DNA of 17,569 bases from an uncultured ANME-1 euryarchaeote (GTDB lineage Archaea; Halobacteriota; Syntropharchaeia; Alkanophagales; Methanospirareceae), in the NCBI GenBank assembly GCA_965195275.1, contig CBDAFQ010000013.1, positions 1 through 17,569 of the forward strand. Direction: 5' to 3'. Of this stretch, positions 1,168 through 14,297 are shown one piece after another. Position 1 is the first letter of the stretch. Each line of letters opens with the position of its first letter. Both the position numbers and the translations under genes were made by a program. A model generated the notes under the pieces. That model worked only from the letters and a program-made list of their open reading frames with translations, did not search any database and was not told where the DNA came from.

Positions 1168-2442
1168 ATGGGGAAGCAATTCTTAGAAATCGTTGAGAAA
1201 GAGAAGGTAGAAGAAATAGTTGCCGAGCTCAGTGCGAAACTTGCAAAGCAGACAGAGAAGGAAAAAGCGGGTATCGACGAAGCGCTCGGTAGAATTGCAG
1301 CTACAGACATCTTTTCAGTTCTCAATATCCCCCCTTTTGACCGAGCAACTATGGACGGCTACGCAGTGGTTGCCGCTGATACATTCTATGCAGACGAAAA
1401 CAATCCCGCCTCGTTGATTATAAGAGGATATGTCCCTGCGGGCGAGTTACCTTCACAAGATGTAGAAAGCGGCTATTGCTTGGGCATATCTACCGGCGCA
1501 CCTATCCCGAAAGGTGCAAATGCTGTTGTCAAAATCGAAAACACATTTCTTGATGATGCCGAAATAAAAAAGGTGAAGATATACAAACCAGTCGCTCCTA
1601 ACGAGAACATCATGCTCGCAGGCACGGATATAAAGCGAGGCGAGCGGATAGTAAAGGGGGGGACCATGCTAACGCCACGTGAGACCGGTGTTCTGGCTGC
1701 ATGTGGGCTAAACGAAGTCTCTGTACGTAAAAGACCGAAAGTTGCAATCATATCCACGGGCAATGAGATACTCGTGCCTGGCGAAGACCTCAAACCGGGA
1801 AAGATATACGATGTTAATGCGCAGGCAATCAGCGATTCAGTTAGAGACTGCGGCTGTGTCCCTTTAGCTCTTGGAATTGCACGCGATAACGTCAACGAGA
1901 TTTCTGGAAGCTTAAAAGAGGCATTAAAAAGGGATGTTGATGTTATAATCGCCTCGGGCGGTACCTCGGCAGGCGTTGGTGACCTATTGCCAAATGTGAT
2001 AGAAGAGCTTGGCGAGATTATCGTGCATGGCGTTGATATAAAACCAGGAAAACCGCTCATCTTCGGCTTGATCAGGGGAAAACCGGTGTTTGGATTGCCT
2101 GGCAATCCTACTTCTGCGTTAATTACCTTTAACCTTTTCGCAGCCCCTCTGCTACGCACAATAGCCGGTATCCGCTCGCTCGAAGAAGGCGAAAGGCGAA
2201 GTGCAAAAGCTGCAATTAGGATCTTCTCCGAGCGAGGGCGAAATGAATACGTACTTGTAAATCTCATGCCCCTAAACGATGAATTACTTGCATATCCTAT
2301 TCTCTCCGGCTCCGGTGCTATTACAACCCTATCAAAAGCGGATGGCTATTTGTACATGGCGAAAGGGAAGGAGATACTGGAAGAAGGGGAAATGGTGGAA
2401 GTTAAATTATTGACGAACCGAAATCAGCTCAAAAATCGGTGA
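1168..2442 (+). CDS. moeA: Molybdopterin molybdenumtransferase MoeA (gephyrin E-domain family)
   Basis: MoeA motifs are present: PPFDRATMDGYAV, GGTSAG, GLPGNPTSALITF. The 424-aa length is typical. Confidence 0.85.
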   Translation: MGKQFLEIVEKEKVEEIVAELSAKLAKQTEKEKAGIDEALGRIAATDIFSVLNIPPFDRATMDGYAVVAADTFYADENNPASLIIRGYVPAGELPSQDVESGYCLGISTGAPIPKGANAVVKIENTFLDDAEIKKVKIYKPVAPNENIMLAGTDIKRGERIVKGGTMLTPRETGVLAACGLNEVSVRKRPKVAIISTGNEILVPGEDLKPGKIYDVNAQAISDSVRDCGCVPLALGIARDNVNEISGSLKEALKRDVDVIIASGGTSAGVGDLLPNVIEELGEIIVHGVDIKPGKPLIFGLIRGKPVFGLPGNPTSALITFNLFAAPLLRTIAGIRSLEEGERRSAKAAIRIFSERGRNEYVLVNLMPLNDELLAYPILSGSGAITTLSKADGYLYMAKGKEILEEGEMVEVKLLTNRNQLKNR

Positions 2443-2488
2443 TTTTTGAGCTGACAATGCAAAATGGAAAGTGCAAAAGTCAAAGTTC
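2425..2488 (+). repeat. Copy 1 of a recurrent gene-3'-end element. A perfect 12-bp-stem hairpin CAGCTCAAAAAT-cggtg-ATTTTTGAGCTG straddles the moeA TGA stop, followed by the conserved tail GACAATGCAAAATGGAAAGTGCAAAAGTCAAAGTTC.
   Basis: The palindrome can be read directly. The tail is nearly identical to the reverse complement of 5346-5384 and similar to 5256-5286 and 10176-10210. Confidence 0.7.
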
Positions 2489-2509
2489 AATAAAAAGCGA
2501 TACACTCAC

Positions 2510-2555: not shown

Positions 2556-2676
2556 CCCGCCTTAACTCAGTTTGGAAGAGTGCGCGGCTGTAGTGTGGCG
2601 TTAGATCACCTCCCAAAAGATCTTATAACCGCGCGCGGACACCGTGCTGTCCCCGGTTCAAATCCGGGAGGCGGGA
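2556..2676 (+). tRNA. Intron-containing tRNA, most parsimoniously tRNA-Tyr(GUA). The exons are 2556-2593 and 2641-2676, with a roughly 47-nt intron at 2594-2640 placed 3' of position 37.
   Basis: The acceptor stem is CCCGCCT/AGGCGGG with a C1-G72 pair (an archaeal/eukaryal Tyr identity element) and discriminator A. The D stem is ACTC/GAGT. The anticodon stem CGCGG/CCGTG contains one G-U pair, and the loop is CT-GTA-G|A. The variable loop is 5 nt. The T arm is CCCGG-TTCAAAT-CCGGG. The intron contains the hairpin AGATC-N11-GATCT and a CCGCGCGCGG segment able to pair with the exon to form a BHB-like splice structure. A T6 run follows at 2677-2682. Confidence 0.7.
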
Positions 2677-4234: not shown

Positions 4235-4681
4235 ATGGCAAAAATAGAACTCGTTTGCTGGAAGGATAAAATCGGTGGCGAAATAGAGAGACAGGTAACA
4301 GATGCGTTCAGCTATGGCTTTACCATTGGTTCGCATGGCGAATGGGAGATGGCAATAGCGAAGGAGGATAAAGAAGTTTCGAAAAACGAACTCGTGAACA
4401 TAACGATAGAAGATATAGAGTTGCCGCCAAAGGCGATAGTCTTGCCTTGTAACATAATGCGACATGCACTTGGCATTGTTTCTTCGTTCGCGGCTGTGGG
4501 ACAGCCAAAGAGTGTAGAGGAAAAGAGAGTGCTTAATGAAGCTATTTTTCACCCCCTGTTTGATGGTAAGGTAAGTAAAGGCGAATTACTCTCTGTTGTG
4601 AATATATTTTATGCTGCGGTAGAGCGAAGGCTTGCGAGAGGTGCTGCGGAGAAGTGGCTGCGCGAGCGATACAAGTATTAG
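4235..4681 (+). CDS. Hypothetical protein. The track ORF begins at GTG 4211, and the first ATG is at 4235.
   Basis: The 148-156-aa ORF overlaps the downstream kinase gene by 28 nt, which suggests a co-transcribed unit. I recognised no family. Confidence 0.45.
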   Translation: MAKIELVCWKDKIGGEIERQVTDAFSYGFTIGSHGEWEMAIAKEDKEVSKNELVNITIEDIELPPKAIVLPCNIMRHALGIVSSFAAVGQPKSVEEKRVLNEAIFHPLFDGKVSKGELLSVVNIFYAAVERRLARGAAEKWLRERYKY

Positions 4682-5253
4682 CTTTCGTCGGTGCGCCCGC
4701 GGCCGGGAAGACAGAAGCGGCATCGGTAGCTAAGACGCTTGGCATTCCGATCATAACCATGGGTGACGTGATAAGGGCGGAGCTAAGAAGGCGAGGTCTT
4801 CCGTTAAGCGACGAAAATGCGGGCAGAATTGCATCGGAGCTGCGAGCGCGAGAAGGAATGGATGCGATTGCAAAACGGTGCATCCCACATATAAAAGCGA
4901 TAGCTGGTAAAAAAGCGGTTATCGTAATAGATGGTATAAGGGGCATCTCCGAAGTGGAAACGTTTAAAAAAGAATTTGGCACTGATTTTACGCTTGTGAG
5001 AGTGGATGCCCCTCTCAATCTCAGATATGAGCGGATAAAGACCCGTGGCAGAGGTGATGACTCGCTTAGTATCGAGGAATTTAAGGCACGAGAAGAGAGG
5101 GAGAAAGGGTGGGGAATGGGAGAAGCAATGAAAAATGCTGATAATGTTATAACGAACACGGGTTCTCGAGAACACTTTAAAGAACAGATAGAAGAGATTT
5201 TAGCTTCTTCGATACCGGAATATGGTAATTGCTCAAAATCTTGTGGATTTTGA
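4654..5253 (+). CDS. P-loop nucleotide kinase of the archaeal UPF0200 / CoaE-like family. The track start is GTG; an alternative start is the ATG at codon 36.
   Basis: The N-terminal Walker A motif is VLAFVGAPAAGKTEAA. The 199-aa length and overall pattern resemble archaeal UPF0200 proteins. Confidence 0.6.
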   Translation: MAARAIQVLAFVGAPAAGKTEAASVAKTLGIPIITMGDVIRAELRRRGLPLSDENAGRIASELRAREGMDAIAKRCIPHIKAIAGKKAVIVIDGIRGISEVETFKKEFGTDFTLVRVDAPLNLRYERIKTRGRGDDSLSIEEFKAREEREKGWGMGEAMKNADNVITNTGSREHFKEQIEEILASSIPEYGNCSKSCGF

Positions 5254-5286
5254 GCAATTAATTTCAAAATGCAAATTGCAAAATAT
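5231..5286 (+). repeat. Copy 2 of the 3'-end element. The hairpin GCTCAAAAT-cttgtgg-ATTTTGAGC straddles the TGA stop of the UPF0200 gene, followed by AATTAATTTCAAAATGCAAATTGCAAAATAT.
   Basis: It has the same hairpin arms (GCTCAAAA / TTTTGAGC) and the same ATGCAAAAT..TGCAAAA tail as copy 1. Confidence 0.65.
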
Positions 5287-5345
5287 AAAACGGTAAAATG
5301 GGCTCTTTTAACTTTAAAGCAGCCATTAACACCATCTGTTGAACT

Positions 5346-5413
5346 TTGACTTTTGCACTTTGCATTTTAAATTTTGCATTATCAGCTCAAAAAAAACAAA
5401 GGTTTTTTGAGCA
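5346..5413 (-). repeat. Copy 3 of the 3'-end element in minus orientation, downstream of the minus-strand gene 5442-5876. The hairpin is GCTCAAAAAA-aacaaagg-TTTTTTGAGC at 5385-5412.
   Basis: The reverse complement reads GCTCAAAAAACCTTTGTTTTTTTTGAGCTGATAATGCAAAATTTAAAATGCAAAGTGCAAAAGTCAAAGTTC, which matches 2427-2488 nearly position for position. Confidence 0.7.
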
Positions 5414-5441
5414 GATACGGAACATGTATAGAACCACGAGA

Positions 5442-5876
5442 TTATACAACGGCGCTTGCTACATCTCTGCTTTCTGTGGCGGCCAACCTGTATTGTCTCT
5501 TTGCCCTACTTCCTTTTCTCATCAAAATACCAGTAGAATGGAAGTTCCCTAAATATGTAGATATTGTAGTAAGTCCCACTTTCTCATCATACACGTCTTC
5601 ATATATACACCTTACCTCTGAAGAAGTGAACCAATCCTTTGGTGCCTTTTCATCAAAGCGCAAAAAGGATGCCAATCGCTCCTTTATCGTAAGTTCTTCG
5701 CCTTCATAATAATCATCAACTGCCGGCGAAGAAAGGTGCGTCTCCAAAAACTTTGTCACGTCATTTATAGTCATCTGTCGGAGCAGCTGGATTTGTAAAT
5801 CGCCCTCCTTCTCCAGGGTTGTTTTTGTACCTTCTTCATCCGTTACCTCTACCCGCACCTTTAGCATCGCTTTCAC
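5442..5876 (-). CDS. Hypothetical protein with a probable C-terminal winged helix-turn-helix DNA-binding domain; candidate transcription regulator
   Basis: The C-terminal segment SSEVRCIYEDVYDEKVGLTTISTYLGNFHSTGILMRKGSRAKRQYRL has a helix-turn-helix-plus-wing pattern. The gene is divergent from dnaJ. Confidence 0.5.
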   Translation of the reverse strand: MKAMLKVRVEVTDEEGTKTTLEKEGDLQIQLLRQMTINDVTKFLETHLSSPAVDDYYEGEELTIKERLASFLRFDEKAPKDWFTSSEVRCIYEDVYDEKVGLTTISTYLGNFHSTGILMRKGSRAKRQYRLAATESRDVASAVV

Positions 5877-5930: not shown

Positions 5931-6099
5931 TATTGCTGTAAATGTACAAAATCTCATTAGCGTCACTTGCTGATTTTTGACGTTTACCCCTTTTTATTTT
6001 ACACCTTACACGTTTAATTCTATGCTCAACCGCAGCCAAACTTTTGAGTTGACACCTCTGTTTCCTGTGGAGTGAGGTAGTGAACAGTGAACCTTGCTA

Positions 6100-7369: not shown

Positions 7370-9130
7370 GTGAAAGGTATGAAGCAAGAGATACGAACGC
7401 CCATACTCTCGGTACTTGGACATATAGATCATGGTAAGACCTCACTACTTGATTCGATACGGGGCACAGCAATCACAGCAAAGGAAGCAGGTCGTGTGAC
7501 GCAGCATATAGGTGCGACAGAAATCCCTATTGATACAATAAAAAAGATTTGTAAACCACTAAAAAGGGATTGGACAGGAATAGAAATACCTGGTTTGCTT
7601 TTCATTGACACTCCAGGGCATCATGCCTTCGCATCATTGAGGAAACGCGGAAGTGCTTTAGCTGATGTCGCGGTCCTTGTAGTGGATGTGATGGAGGGTT
7701 TTCAACCGCAGACATACGAATCGTTAAACATTTTAAGGCTATTAAAAACGCCTTTTGTTGTTGCATTGAACAAAATAGACCGGGTAAGTGGCTGGAATTC
7801 GACGAATAAACCTTTCATTATCAATTATAAAGATCAGCCGGATTATGCGCGGAATGAACTGGACGCGCGGATATATGATATGGTAGGAGACCTTTACGAT
7901 AAAGGCTTCTCGGCTGACAAGTATGACCAGATAAGAGATTTCGCAAAGACTGTGGGTATTGTGCCGCTGAGTGCACAGACCGGAGAAGGGATTGCTGATT
8001 TACTCCTTGTGCTCATAGGATTATCGCAGAAGTTCTTTGAGATGACTCTGCGTCTACATTTAGAAAAAGCGGGTGTTGGCACGATATTAGAGAAGAAGGA
8101 GGAAAGAGGGCTCGGAACTACGATTGATGTGATATTATATGATGGTAAGATCAGCGTGGGCGATACAATCGTGGGTGGTGGCACTGATGAGGAACCAATA
8201 GTTACAAAGGTGAAGGCATTGCTGAAACCAAGAGCACTGCAAGAGATACGGGTAGAGCAACGGTTTGAGCGGGTAAAAACGGTGAATGCCGCTTCTGGTG
8301 TGAAGATAGTAGCACCGAATATAGAAACTGCGCTCCCGGGTGCACAGGTGAGAGTGGTTGGAGAAGGAGATGTACTTGAGAACGTGGTGAAATTGGTTAA
8401 GAGCGAGATAGAGGAGATGAGGATGGAGACATCACCAGAAGGGCTAATAATAAAGGCAGATACCATGGGCTCACTGGAAGCGCTTGCTTCTGAGCTGCGA
8501 GATGAAGAGATAGAGGAGATAAAAAAGGCAGAGGTTGGGAATATATCTAAAAGGGATGTGATAGATGCGGGTACGGTTAAGAACCGTTATTCCGGTGTTA
8601 TTTTGGGCTTTAATGTTGACCTCCTCCCGGATGCAAAAGAGATGGTTAGGGAGAATGGAATACCAGTATTTATAAGCGATGTCATTTACCGGTTGATAGG
8701 AGAGTATAAGGACTGGATGAAGGGAGAGAAGGAGAAAGAGAAGCGTGAGATTATCGAACGGCTGCCCACACCTGCTAAGATTAAGATCCTGCCTGGGTGT
8801 GTGTTCAGGCAAAGCAAGCCCGCCATCGTAGGTGTGGAAGTTCTTGGTGGGAAGATACAAACAGGTGTGGACCTGATAAAAGCGGATGGTACCAACATAG
8901 GCACGATAAATGAGATACAAGATAAAGCAGAGAGCATAAAAAGTGCGGGACTGGGGATGCAAGTCGCTATTTCAATGAAGAAACCGACTGTGGGGCGGCA
9001 AATAAATGAGAAAGATCTATTATATGTGGATATTAGCAAAGAAGAAGCGAAAGCACTATCTGGTTTGTTGTCCGCTGATGAAGAGGATGTGTTAGAGGAG
9101 TTGATGAAACTAAAAAGCCGGCATTTGTAA
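7370..9130 (+). CDS. infB: Translation initiation factor aIF5B (archaeal IF-2 homolog)
   Basis: The G-domain motifs are GHIDHGKTSLLD (G1), DTPGH (G3) and NKID (G4). The 586-aa length is typical of aIF5B. The gene starts 20 nt after the dnaJ stop and has a GGTGAAAGGT ribosome-binding site. Confidence 0.9.
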   Translation: MKGMKQEIRTPILSVLGHIDHGKTSLLDSIRGTAITAKEAGRVTQHIGATEIPIDTIKKICKPLKRDWTGIEIPGLLFIDTPGHHAFASLRKRGSALADVAVLVVDVMEGFQPQTYESLNILRLLKTPFVVALNKIDRVSGWNSTNKPFIINYKDQPDYARNELDARIYDMVGDLYDKGFSADKYDQIRDFAKTVGIVPLSAQTGEGIADLLLVLIGLSQKFFEMTLRLHLEKAGVGTILEKKEERGLGTTIDVILYDGKISVGDTIVGGGTDEEPIVTKVKALLKPRALQEIRVEQRFERVKTVNAASGVKIVAPNIETALPGAQVRVVGEGDVLENVVKLVKSEIEEMRMETSPEGLIIKADTMGSLEALASELRDEEIEEIKKAEVGNISKRDVIDAGTVKNRYSGVILGFNVDLLPDAKEMVRENGIPVFISDVIYRLIGEYKDWMKGEKEKEKREIIERLPTPAKIKILPGCVFRQSKPAIVGVEVLGGKIQTGVDLIKADGTNIGTINEIQDKAESIKSAGLGMQVAISMKKPTVGRQINEKDLLYVDISKEEAKALSGLLSADEEDVLEELMKLKSRHL

Positions 9131-9282
9131 CCACAAGATTACACAGATTTCCACGAGAGAAATTGTGAAGATGCAAGAAAATAAATTATTGACACAGATT
9201 AACGCAGATTGACACAGAAGAAATCAAATCAGTGTAAATCTACGTCTTAAATATGTAGAAGTTATACTTTAGATACAACAAG
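9128..9282 (+). repeat. Copy A of a roughly 160-bp interspersed intergenic repeat (TAACCACAAGATTAYACA ... ATTATTGACACAGATTAAC ... CAGAAGAAAT.AAATC.GTGTAAATCT ... GAAGTTATACT ... ATACAACRAG). It begins at the infB stop codon.
   Basis: It shows block-wise identity with 13964-14128 in the same orientation. The internal short direct repeats are CACAGATTAAC / GCAGATTGAC / CACAGAAG. Confidence 0.7.
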
Positions 9283-9317: not shown

Positions 9318-9699
9318 TTACAAAACCCACTTAAGCGTCAGCACAAGTTCCTTTACGGCTTCTGCGTGATCCATTACCGTTTCCGGTGGTAACCAGTCCT
9401 CATAGAAGTTCTGATGTAAGGTACTTGCGAGACTAAATAACCGTACGAGCTCCGGCTCTTCAAGTTCCGTACCCATTTTTTGATACGAATGTATACAATT
9501 CGGCATGCGATTTTATTACAATGCCTCGCCGTGCTGCTATCGCCTTGACGATTTCAGCAGCAGCGCCCCGGAGCTTCTCAGATGCCTGAACAAAGTCCTC
9601 CTTCGCTATCAGCGCATACGCGTCCATCGGATATTTATCGTTCAATTTGAGATACTGTTTGTTCTGCTTTTTGCGCATATGCTTCACTGCTCGTAGCAT
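9318..9699 (-). pseudogene. HEPN-domain protein of the PaREP1-like family, disrupted by a frameshift in an A6 homopolymer (plus-strand T6 at 9476-9481)
   Basis: Two overlapping minus-strand ORFs (9460-9699 and 9318-9506) together give ...DFVQASEKLRGAAAEIVKAIAARRGIVIKSHAELYTFVSK / MGTELEEPELVRLFSLASTLHQNFYEDWLPPETVMDHAEAVKELV. Removing one A from the A6 run fuses them into one continuous HEPN-like protein of about 125 aa. Confidence 0.6.
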
Positions 9700-10172: not shown

Positions 10173-10210
10173 TTGTGGATGCGAAACAAAATGGAAAGTG
10201 CAAAATAAGT
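10170..10210 (+). repeat. Copy 4 (truncated) of the 3'-end element, reading GATTGTGGATGCGAAACAAAATGGAAAGTGCAAAATAAGTAAA. It begins at the rps6e TGA stop.
   Basis: The core CAAAATGGAAAGTGCAAAA is identical to the core in 2461-2479. Confidence 0.6.
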
Positions 10211-11600: not shown

Positions 11601-13073
11601 TTACGCTATTTTTCGTCTCCGTACTGAATATGCAACTGCGAACAGAGACGCAATAGCGAAACCAACTTCAAAACCGGGTGGTGTCGGCGTTGGAGTCTCA
11701 GCAACAGTCGACTCTGGAGTTTCTACCACAGTTGGCGTTGGAGTCTCAGCAACAGTCGGCGTTGGGGTTTCAACAACCGTAGGCGTTGGTGTTTCTGCCA
11801 CTGTTGGCTTTGGCGATGGTGTCGACGGTACGATTGGACCCTTCAGCTCGAGTGGGTTCCCATATACAACACGTCCATTGTCGGTAATAGTCCATTCACA
11901 GAAACACCCCATCACATCACCGTGCTCATCAAACGTGATTTCGCCAGAAGCACCCAGATAGTTTATGGAATAAAAACCTTTTCGGATAGTATCTAATGCT
12001 TCACCGATGTCAGAAACGTCTTTATTTCCTGGCGGATTTGCAACATCTCGTAAACTGTCACGGATAGCCGTTCCGGAAGTGTCACCCGCTTTTTCTATCG
12101 CAAGTGCTACCACAGCCACTGCATCATAGCTGTTAGCGCAGTAGGCTTCAGGCTCCTTCCCGTACTCGGCCAGATATTTCTGCCGGAATGTTTCGTATGC
12201 GGGACCTCGCGAGTCAGGCGTTGTCCCTTTTAATCCCGCTATAATATAGTTACCCGCCTCGTCCTTGCCCACCATATCTGCCAAATTGTCACTCTTGAGC
12301 CCCTCAGAAAGTAGCCAAGCTATATTATCCATATAGCCGTTCTTGTATGCCGCTTTCAGCATACCACTGCCGGTCTCCGGATATGCACACAGCATAACGC
12401 AATCAGGATTCACGGCTGCTACTTGCTCTACTTCCGAATTGAATGTGGTTGTGTCAGGGTCGTATTTCACGGATTCCAATACCCTTCCGCCGAGCGTTTT
12501 GAATTCCTTCGTGAATGCCTTCTCGAATCCTACTCCGTATGGGTTCCAAACTACCAGCGTGCTCGCTGTCTTATAGCCCTGTTGGATAGCAAGCCTTCCC
12601 ATCGCTATTCCTTGCAATGCGTCAGAAGGGCATGTTCTAAAAAAGAGATCGTTGTCCGGATAGGTTGTAAATTCCACGCCTGTAACAGAAGGTGAAATCT
12701 GAAGAACGCCGTTACTCGTGGTATAACCAATGATTGCCTTGCAGGTTTCGCTGCCCGCTGTTCCGATTATTACCGAGACAGGGTACCAATCAAGGAGTTC
12801 ATGTGCCTTCACAACGGCTTCATCTTCTGACGTTTCGGTATCCTTGATTATAAGCTTAAGTCTTCCGCCGAGTACACCGCCGTTTTCGTTTACCTCTTTC
12901 ACTGCCAGATTCATCGCATCTGTCTCAGGTTTTCCGTACGCGCCTAAGTCCCCGGAAAATGGATAAAGAACTCCTATAGTCACATCTTCAGCACCCACCG
13001 TGCCCACGGATAGAACGGCTGCCAGAACAAAAGTTGCAATAACTAAACCCTCTGTTAAACCTTTTGTATTCAT
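11601..13073 (-). CDS. ABC-transporter-type solute-binding protein (periplasmic binding protein type 1, Liv-like) with an N-terminal signal peptide, a Thr/Pro-rich linker and a C-terminal PGF-CTERM archaeosortase sorting signal
   Basis: The N-terminus MNTKGLTEGLVIATFVLAAVLSVG is a signal peptide. The body resembles branched-chain amino-acid binding proteins. The C-terminus carries repeats of PTVAETPTPTVVETPT followed by PPGFEVGFAIASLFAVAYSVRRRKIA, that is PGF, a TM helix and a basic tail. An AAGGAGG ribosome-binding site lies just upstream of the ATG on the minus strand. Confidence 0.8.
   Translation of the reverse strand: MNTKGLTEGLVIATFVLAAVLSVGTVGAEDVTIGVLYPFSGDLGAYGKPETDAMNLAVKEVNENGGVLGGRLKLIIKDTETSEDEAVVKAHELLDWYPVSVIIGTAGSETCKAIIGYTTSNGVLQISPSVTGVEFTTYPDNDLFFRTCPSDALQGIAMGRLAIQQGYKTASTLVVWNPYGVGFEKAFTKEFKTLGGRVLESVKYDPDTTTFNSEVEQVAAVNPDCVMLCAYPETGSGMLKAAYKNGYMDNIAWLLSEGLKSDNLADMVGKDEAGNYIIAGLKGTTPDSRGPAYETFRQKYLAEYGKEPEAYCANSYDAVAVVALAIEKAGDTSGTAIRDSLRDVANPPGNKDVSDIGEALDTIRKGFYSINYLGASGEITFDEHGDVMGCFCEWTITDNGRVVYGNPLELKGPIVPSTPSPKPTVAETPTPTVVETPTPTVAETPTPTVVETPESTVAETPTPTPPGFEVGFAIASLFAVAYSVRRRKIA
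11686..11832. repeat. Tandem 24-nt direct repeats (about 6 units of GTTGGAGTCTCAGCAACAGTCGGC-like sequence) encoding the TPTPTV(A/V)E linker of the binding protein
   Basis: The periodicity can be read directly. It gives rise to the spurious antisense ORF 11596-11961. Confidence 0.7.
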
Positions 13074-13899: not shown

Positions 13900-13963
13900 C
13901 TGATTATCTATATATACACCTTCATAGATTTAAATCAGTGAATTATAGTTGATTCCGAAGTTA

Positions 13964-14128
13964 TAACCACAAGATTATACACATTTTTTACAAGAAAGCA
14001 TAATATCCAACTAAAATTGATTATTGACACAGATTAACACTGATTAACGCAGAAGAAATTAAATCCGTGTAAATCCGTGTAAATCTGCATCTTGAATGGA
14101 TGGAAGTTATACTGGTATATACAACGAG
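13964..14128 (+). repeat. Copy B of the roughly 160-bp interspersed repeat, with an internal tandem duplication AATCCGTGTA x2
   Basis: It aligns block-wise with 9128-9282 in the same orientation. It lies in a 400-bp intergenic region between two minus-strand genes. Confidence 0.7.
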
Positions 14129-14297
14129 AGAACAATAACAGGAATCCATTTTCTGTCTTTCATCTTTGATTTTATCCCATATCAAGCACTACTTCTTGTG
14201 TTAATCTCGTGAAATCTCGTGGTTTATTAATTGCAATTTATTACGGGAATGGGCCATATACCACCTGGGGGTACTCATAGATCTAAAGTGGTTTGCT

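Follow-up and report, generated by a model that had tools for sequence, protein, structure and literature searches.

A probable miniature inverted-repeat transposable element of ANME-1 archaea and the protein tail that it rewrote

In the stretch of DNA analysed here (17,569 nucleotides of contig CBDAFQ010000013.1, assembly GCA_965195275.1, from an uncultured ANME-1 archaeon; hereafter the window), a 194-bp segment at positions 5225-5418 lies between two convergent genes, which encode a UPF0200-type (dephospho-CoA-kinase-like) protein and a protein of 144 aa. We are highly confident that this segment is a single non-autonomous DNA transposon, namely a miniature inverted-repeat transposable element (MITE), belonging to a family of approximately 195-215 bp that is dispersed in ANME-1 (Methanophagales). 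The window contains one complete copy, which rewrote the tail of the kinase-like protein, one half relic, which acted likewise at moeA, and one degenerate relic. The family was previously undescribed, although its kind is an ordinary one: a full-text literature search found no paper joining ANME-1 with "miniature inverted", and ANME and Methanophagales are unmentioned in two published surveys of archaeal insertion sequences and MITEs.

Throughout the text, L-numbers (L001, L004, etc.) are labels of the compared loci and P-numbers (P0031, P0059) those of the compared proteins. The closest homologues of the UPF0200-type protein and of MoeA are labelled ANME-1 or Methanophagales in their sources.

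Insertion of the element at the end of the kinase gene

The element is bordered by an 8-bp target-site duplication, the two copies of which are alike at 7 of 8 positions (Table 1). An exact empty site, CCGGAACATGTATAG (or CAGATATAG), with the neighbouring gene directly after it, was found in the syntenic loci L004, L005, L006, L170 and L172. These loci read ...TCGAGACCGGAACATGTATAG AACCACGAGATTACACAAGATTATACAACGG..., with the convergent genes 20 bp apart and the target present once; the protein ends in PEHV-stop where the site reads CCGGAACATGTATAG, and L170 has a single GGAACATG. The filled site is common to the window and L173 (97% identical). In the window, the insertion has extended the gap between the kinase gene and the convergent gene from 20 bp to 188 bp, and on the far side of the element the stop codon of the minus-strand open reading frame (ORF) is 23 bp away from it. 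The end of the ancestral gene was not lost: to the right of the element GAA CAT GTA TAG (EHV-stop) is still legible at positions 5420-5431, as part of a stranded remnant identical to the corresponding part of the 191-aa orthologue in L170.

The relatives of the kinase-like protein fall into two classes, (i) proteins of 199 aa ending in ...GNCSKSCGF or variants of this sequence, and (ii) proteins of 191 aa ending in ...PEHV, ...PEQI, ...LEYA and similar, which are 91-94% identical and have different C-termini. Since the orthologues without the element end otherwise (...PEHV-stop, ...PEQI-stop and ...LEYA-stop, versus ...PEYGNCSKSCGF-stop), it was the element that supplied the new C-terminus together with the stop codon. 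Every base of the new codons except the first is derived from the element; the TGA (5251-5253) sits in the 3′ arm of the first terminal hairpin (5231-5255). In an ancestor of this genome the element entered the target GGAACATG, which lies five bases upstream of the kinase stop codon, and these 8 bp were duplicated. The last (Val) codon was split, and V-stop was replaced by G-NCSKSCGF-stop, read from the end of the element; the protein now ends in ...PE(H>Y)-G-NCSKSCGF-stop.

Several proposals made in an earlier note on this DNA are borne out by these results. One of the two alternatives in the note, a MITE with the element itself as its terminal inverted repeats, is correct; the target-site duplications that it advised looking for are present at the flanks, 8 bp in length. 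The hairpin does straddle the UPF0200 stop codon and encode CSKSCGF, as had been claimed, and the kinase C-termini at orthologous loci without the element do differ.

The captured tail drifts among relatives (GNSSKSCGF, GNCSNSCGF and GNCSKTTRF), which suggests the absence of constraint. In the kinase homologue P0031 (75% identical), the end reads ...RYPLSNCSISCGLKS, which looks like the same terminus of the element in the same frame at a slightly shifted position and may represent an independent capture. The likeness between L169 (P0059, with the tail RNYSKSYLL) and the end of the element is limited to 18 nt and is not decisive. We also considered a direct repeat of 13-14 bp (GATACCGGAATATG and GATAC-GGAACATG; positions 5211-5224 and 5414-5426) as the duplication, and rejected it in favour of the 8-bp repeat, because the right-hand GATAC belongs to the terminus of the element itself and the length of the duplication is set at 8 bp by other copies.

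The site also exists in a third state. In L001-3, L012 and L171 the kinase gene is overlapped by only half of the element, which is joined directly to AGATTATACAAC and lacks the right-hand duplication and the ancestral spacer; the junction is the same in L001 and L171, and similar, though not identical, in L012. A second insertion into the half-element state (L001, L171, L012) was rejected as the origin of the window state. The full element has the duplication and intact ancestral sequence at its flanks, and therefore the half state is a deletion derivative of the window state. When 560 nt of the kinase gene are compared, the identity of the filled alleles (window and L173) is 94-97% to the empty ones (L170 and L004-6) and 87-92% to the half-element alleles; on the kinase-gene identity matrix L171 (half) is nearest to L172 (empty). 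All of the filled alleles are alike in position, orientation and the C-to-T change of the left duplication.

Anatomy of the element

An nhmmer profile constructed from six full copies matched the window copy over model positions 1-210 (E = 2e-56); the same region was also matched on the opposite strand (E = 6e-15). The terminal inverted repeats, GTATCTGCTCAAAA and GTAATTGCTCAAAA, agree at 12 of 14 positions and are conserved over the 35 distinct ends examined, and the likeness between the two ends of the element spans approximately 40 bp. Each repeat is embedded in a palindrome with a 16-bp stem, which reaches the second base of the element. In the alignment of the 35 ends, 90.7% of the cells of these palindromes are paired (only 30-50% in registers shifted by 1-3 columns), and three pairs show double changes, 35 in all. 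The window contains three instances of the hairpin pattern GCTCAAAA-N(4-20)-TTTTGAGC, at 2427-2451, 5231-5255 and 5385-5412, compared with an expectation of 0 from 200 shuffles.

The arms adjoining the two hairpins of the full copy (5260-5283 and 5351-5374) are inverted copies of each other, 88% complementary. Relative to shuffled sequences, the fold of the 194 nt has z-scores of −6.4 and −7.4 on the two strands, with three hairpins on either strand. The element has no coding capacity: the ORFs across it begin or end in flanking DNA, and with its length of 194 bp it is too short to encode a transposase. No Rfam family matched the element at the gathering threshold, and a run by E-value on positions 5150-5500 gave only sub-threshold chance hits.

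The earlier note had described this region as two inverted copies of a 3′ element, at 5231-5413, facing each other across about 60 bp of unique sequence (5287-5345). The inverted arms are real, but they do not represent two independent 3′ elements, for the unit moves as a whole; its bounds are 5225 and 5418, and the supposedly unique spacer recurs in conserved form in its other copies.

The terminal hairpins were observed with their loops in both orientations (CTTGTGG versus CCACAAG; CCACAG versus C(A/G)GTGG), resembling the flip/flop of palindromes; examples are listed in Table 1.

Mobility and distribution of the family

In locus L004 the whole element, core included, is inserted between uvrA and a band-7 gene, with AGTATAGG on both flanks. 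The same site is empty, with a single AGTATAGG, in the sister locus L005 and in the window (at approximately 140-170). At two sites, the window and L004 are reciprocally filled and empty. Further copies were identified at unrelated loci (L007, L010, L017, L020, L134 and others), and five independent insertions are bordered by perfect 8-bp duplications: AGTATAGG in L004, GTCTTGGC in L007, GCCAAATC in L010, TACGGATC in L017 and CCCAAGTC in L134. Copies other than that of the window are 195-257 bp long. The element has moved in cut-and-insert events with 8-bp staggered cleavage of the target, and it has been dispersed within the lineage.

An exact 25-mer of one terminal hairpin matched 11 contigs in a set of species-representative genomes. 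Ten of these belong to archaeal metagenome-assembled genomes (MAGs) labelled Methanophagales or similar (four contigs in one MAG); the eleventh, from a Clostridium MAG, does not carry the element. With the profile of six full copies, more than 30 further loci were recovered among metagenome contigs, and about 35 loci carry the element among the matches listed. A scan of viral contigs yielded 31 matches, all due to chance, none of which (0/31) has the element.

Reduced forms of the element, i.e. internally deleted copies, a copy without its terminal hairpin and solo terminal palindromes, are included in Table 1. The hairpins of L013 and L014 are composed of a 5′-type left arm and a 3′-type right arm, as expected of a deletion between two hairpins. 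The solo palindrome of L113 is located in a contig of 53% G+C.

Relics at moeA and elsewhere in the window

The last six codons of moeA (NQLKNR) and its TGA are provided by the decayed half-element located there. This relic is conserved in L004-L006 as well as in L170, but L001 and L174 lack it, and the proteins of the relatives without the relic end in ...KLISSSFPLR-stop (L174) and ...EVNIHSGKYLYLNFHI-stop (L001). In other ANME-1, conservation of MoeA extends as far as ...VEVxLL(T), after which unrelated tails follow. Neither of the relatives compared (L174 and L001) has a clean empty site at moeA, and no duplication is therefore definable there. The moeA copy goes back to an older insertion of this family, half of which has been deleted. 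The suggestion that the element gave tails to two unrelated proteins accordingly holds for the kinase, with clean empty sites, and in a weaker form for MoeA. An exact-sequence protein look-up returned no record for the MoeA of the window or for P0031.

The second relic, between the 144-aa gene and dnaJ, is strongly degenerate in the window, and a clearer match was obtained at the orthologous positions of L001, L003, L005 and L006. A motif after the S6e gene (10180-10205) was considered as a fourth copy and rejected, since its nhmmer match (E = 1.4) is not significant.

Transposase and points against the MITE interpretation

The element would have been moved in trans by a DDE transposase making 8-bp staggered cuts, and this enzyme may be one of the IS66/ISBst12 group. 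In the IS66 family direct repeats are 8 bp long and the inverted repeats start with GTAAGCG (PMC11946415). For ISDge4 of Deinococcus geothermalis (ISBst12 group), the inverted repeat is GTAACTGCTCAGCA and the direct repeat is 8 bp long (PMC12898284). Comparison of GTAATTGCTCAAAA with the ISDge4 repeat GTAACTGCTCAGCA revealed 11 of 14 positions alike, a figure based on 14 bp and one published example. The 3′ end of the element starts with GTAATTGCTC and the 5′ end with GTATCTGCTC, which gives GTAA at one end and GTAT at the other. We saw no IS66-type transposase gene near the copies of the element, although no transposase query was searched, and in the approximately 0.9 Mb of collected DNA there were no inverted ends placed 1-3.5 kb apart and enclosing an ORF. 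One pair of ends in L104 (117, 1283) was considered as an autonomous element and rejected: the contig is AT-rich, one end has two mismatches, and the pair is consistent with chance. As no transposase was found, the assignment is a lead, based on a resemblance of termini and not on a membership test.

Several observations weigh against the MITE interpretation or restrict it: (i) four of the ten full-length copies (L008, L020, L126 and L087) have no duplication; (ii) the approximately 0.9 Mb of collected DNA yielded neither an autonomous partner nor a transposase gene bounded by such ends; (iii) on the identity matrix, the alleles of the UPF0200 site, whether filled, half or empty, are interleaved (L171, L172, L001, L012, L170 and L004-6 versus window 4654-5213), so that in addition to a single insertion either precise excisions or recombination among ANME-1 populations must be assumed; (iv) the at least 120 loci of the metagenome pattern scan are mostly chance matches, including tandem satellite arrays of approximately 133-143 bp (L031, L072, L077, L079, L106 and L133), and copy numbers are lower bounds; and (v) on the plus strand, the UPF0200 stop codon is followed only by T4 runs until the T6 run at 5403-5408.

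Position at gene ends and alternative explanations

Archaeal transcription termination uses oligo-T. Runs of at least five T just downstream of a gene on its sense strand, as this mode of termination requires of the sequence, are present in the element copies of the window: T8 (minus strand), T6 (plus strand) and T5 after moeA. The T runs of the element lie inside its A/T-rich stems, and no run of the T6/T8 type exists in the ancestral 20-bp spacer. Native gene ends in the window are also followed by T runs, e.g. at 1116-1150 (band-7 gene) and 2677-2682. Within positions 5100-5550, a scan for bacterial-type terminators (hairpin plus T-tail) found no terminator-like site. From sequence, a terminator side-effect of the element is plausible, in which the T6 and T8 runs of the terminal palindromes would now stop transcription coming from either gene. 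The bidirectional terminator module that the earlier note had proposed as its other alternative would be no more than such a side-effect.

The element copy overlaps a stop codon, or lies within approximately 23 bp of one, at 16 of 21 loci, and in tandem-gene contexts it is found at the end of the upstream gene in all cases (4/4). This bias may result from survivorship, with promoters spared, or from targeting; copies could accumulate beside stop codons because insertions there would be tolerated. The element might also be more than a passive MITE, that is, a transposon recognising or directed to the 3′ ends of genes, perhaps retained by ANME-1 as a portable bidirectional oligo-T terminator and donor of C-terminal tails. 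This idea is suggested by terminal hairpins kept by compensatory changes, by loops in both orientations and by the 16 of 21 loci placed 0-23 bp from stops; we consider it improbable.

A different origin, in which the segment is a host-evolved bidirectional terminator or 3′ untranslated region (3′-UTR) element made of two functional gene-end hairpins back to back, appears very unlikely. Its position between convergent genes would fit such a role, as would the T8 run 46 nt after the stop codon of the 144-aa gene, the T6 run, the T-run clusters that follow native gene ends in the manner of archaeal oligo-T terminators (e.g. at 1116-1150) and the frequency with which copies overlap or closely adjoin stop codons. 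However, in close relatives the unit is absent from the same site, with the convergent genes 20 bp apart; its flanks carry an 8-bp duplication, and different duplications are found at unrelated sites; in L004 and L017 the copies lie in divergent promoter regions; and the hairpin-plus-T-tail scan gave no terminator-like site. Any terminator activity could be only secondary to the mobile element, and a terminator role cannot be the origin of the module.

We give hardly any credence to a REPIN-like doublet of palindromic units (REP) spread by a single-strand transposase of the RAYT/IS200-IS605 type. Two inverted palindromic units forming a larger hairpin, numerous intergenic copies and hairpin loops in both orientations are indeed features that such a doublet would share, but target-site duplications of 8 bp border six independent insertions, the termini are genuine inverted repeats, and no RAYT-like gene was seen. 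HUH single-strand transposases (IS200/IS605) are not known to make such target-site duplications.

The remaining candidate, a structured non-coding RNA gene or conserved 3′-UTR RNA with the spacer included, has the very stable fold, the compensatory changes in the terminal helices and the conservation of the spacer between copies in its favour, and is nonetheless a most improbable explanation, given that there is no Rfam family match, that the fold is equally good on either strand, as it should be if it reflects inverted repeats in DNA, that presence/absence polymorphism is accompanied by target duplications and by either orientation relative to the neighbour genes, and that the double changes reduce to a few events (5′-type versus 3′-type ends, and two subfamilies).

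Other features of the window

The genes of the window include those encoding aIF5B, ribosomal protein S6e, an archaeal phosphopantothenate synthetase and a PGF-CTERM protein. The 144-aa ORF, with the degenerate relic upstream and the full element downstream, has a C-terminal part that looks winged-helix-like, as read by eye only. A tRNA-Tyr gene (anticodon GUA; 2556-2676, plus strand) with an intron of approximately 50 nt, followed by T6, scored 44.5 bits (cut-off 29) when the region was searched alone, and is identical in relatives; it was missed by ARAGORN, which found nothing in the window, and by the Rfam gathering run on the window. At 9318-9699 (minus strand) two short overlapping ORFs, of 62 and 79 aa, possibly represent a disrupted gene; this position is occupied by a 119-aa PaREP1-family gene in L004 and a 52-aa fragment in L005. 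A 24-nt tandem repeat of 5 units (11683-11837) lies in the C-terminal part of the gene of the PGF-CTERM solute-binding protein.

There is also a second repeat family, whose motif, AACCACRAGATTWYAC, has 4 matches in the window versus 0.09 expected. Approximately 150 nt are alike between 9125-9270 and 13961-14113, and the segment 13965-14224 has inverted copies of the motif at both bounds, like a second MITE. The motif directly adjoins the aIF5B stop codon and that of the ancestral kinase gene; in L052 and L118 it is also found beside copies of the first element that are truncated.

Table 1. Coordinates of the element, its relics and associated features (positions refer to the window unless another locus is named)
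Feature	Locus	Positions	Strand	Remarks
moeA	window	1168-2442	+	ends NQLKNR + TGA
Decayed 5′ half-element	window	2423-2502	+	hairpin 2427-2451; T5 2443-2447; nhmmer model 3-90, E = 1e-14
T5 run	window	2443-2447	+	directly after moeA stop
UPF0200-type (dephospho-CoA-kinase-like) gene	window	4654-5253	+	ORF; end reads ...EYGNCSKSCGF-stop
Left target-site duplication	window	5217-5224		GGAATATG; one C-to-T change relative to target
New C-terminal codons of the kinase gene	window	5224-5253	+	GGT AAT TGC TCA AAA TCT TGT GGA TTT + TGA
Full-length MITE	window	5225-5418	-	194 bp; nhmmer profile of six full copies
3′ end of element	window	5225		...GAGCAATTAC
Terminal palindrome, 3′ end	window	5226-5260		holds GTAATTGCTCAAAA and hairpin 5231-5255
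Element interior	window	5262-5379		inverted subterminal TGCAAA(A/G)-type repeats around conserved core of ~60 bp
Subterminal TGCAAA(A/G)-type repeats	window	~5262-5285, 5349-5379		
Terminal palindrome, 5′ end	window	5380-5417		holds GTATCTGCTCAAAA and hairpin 5385-5412; T8 (-), T6 (+)
T8 run	window	5389-5396	-	46 nt after stop of 144-aa gene
T6 run	window	5403-5408	+	in 5′-end terminal palindrome
5′ end of element	window	5418		GTATCTGCTC...
Right target-site duplication	window	5419-5426		GGAACATG; identical to target
Stranded remnant of ancestral gene end	window	5419-5431	+	GGAACATGTATAG; identical to end of 191-aa orthologue, L170
144-aa ORF	window	5442-5876	-	no Pfam match; kept in all relatives
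Strongly degenerate 5′-half relic	window	5949-6052	-	between 144-aa gene and dnaJ; nhmmer E = 1.6e-4
PGF-CTERM solute-binding protein gene	window	11601-13073	-	
Motif AACCACRAGATTWYAC	window	5432-5447, 9129-9144, 13965-13980	+	
Motif AACCACRAGATTWYAC	window	14209-14224	-	
Internally deleted copies	L009, L045, L021			
Copy without its terminal hairpin	L093			between CAATTA repeats
Solo terminal palindrome	L013	3348-3384		37-38 bp
Solo terminal palindrome	L014	4751-4786		37-38 bp
Solo terminal palindrome	L028	1421-1458		37-38 bp
Solo terminal palindrome	L094	1293-1330		37-38 bp
Solo terminal palindrome	L113	2569-2606		37-38 bp
Solo terminal palindrome	L132	7058-7095		37-38 bp
Loop-orientation example	L134	364-578		
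Loop-orientation example	L087	6906-7162		
Loop-orientation example	L060	4549-4614		

Significance and comparison with known systems

Uncultured ANME-1 archaea play a key part in the anaerobic oxidation of methane, and descriptions of their mobile DNA are poor. The MITE family provides a sequence-defined marker of recent genome change in these organisms, since populations with 94-97% identity differ reciprocally in which sites are filled and which are empty. The kinase gene represents a clean natural case of a transposon rewriting a protein C-terminus and its stop codon, an ordinary event that is unusually well documented here. The family accounts for the hairpin-plus-TGCAAAA motifs that recur at gene ends in ANME-1 genomes, and in annotation such motifs should not be mistaken for dedicated regulatory elements or for genuine conserved protein tails. 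If the T runs do terminate transcription, the family would be an example of terminators spread by transposition in Archaea.

The element resembles several known systems to different degrees. Like the prokaryotic MITEs (SM1-SM4 of Sulfolobus, the Correia elements of Neisseria and MITEAba12), it is approximately 200 bp long and non-coding, has terminal inverted repeats and target-site duplications of fixed length, and is present in many dispersed, mostly intergenic copies, with filled and empty sites among close relatives. It differs from these named elements in its host, an uncultured ANME-1 archaeon, and in that each terminus is itself a 16-bp-stem palindrome including the inverted repeat. The 8-bp direct repeats and the GTAA at one end are shared with the IS66 family (ISBst12 group), whereas the other end of the element starts with GTAT. 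As in the Rickettsia palindromic elements and other in-frame MITEs, a palindromic mobile element has given codons to a host protein, in this case nine new C-terminal residues and a stop codon; unlike the Rickettsia elements, it is not placed inside a domain, and it replaces the last residue only and extends the tail. REPINs and REP doublets similarly consist of two inverted palindromic units forming a long hairpin in intergenic DNA, but they have no target-site duplication, in contrast to the 8-bp duplications of the element, and depend on RAYT transposases. Finally, the T6 and T8 runs, located on the two strands just downstream of two convergent genes, are like archaeal oligo-T terminators, from which they differ in lying inside the stems of a mobile element and in being absent from the ancestral 20-bp spacer.

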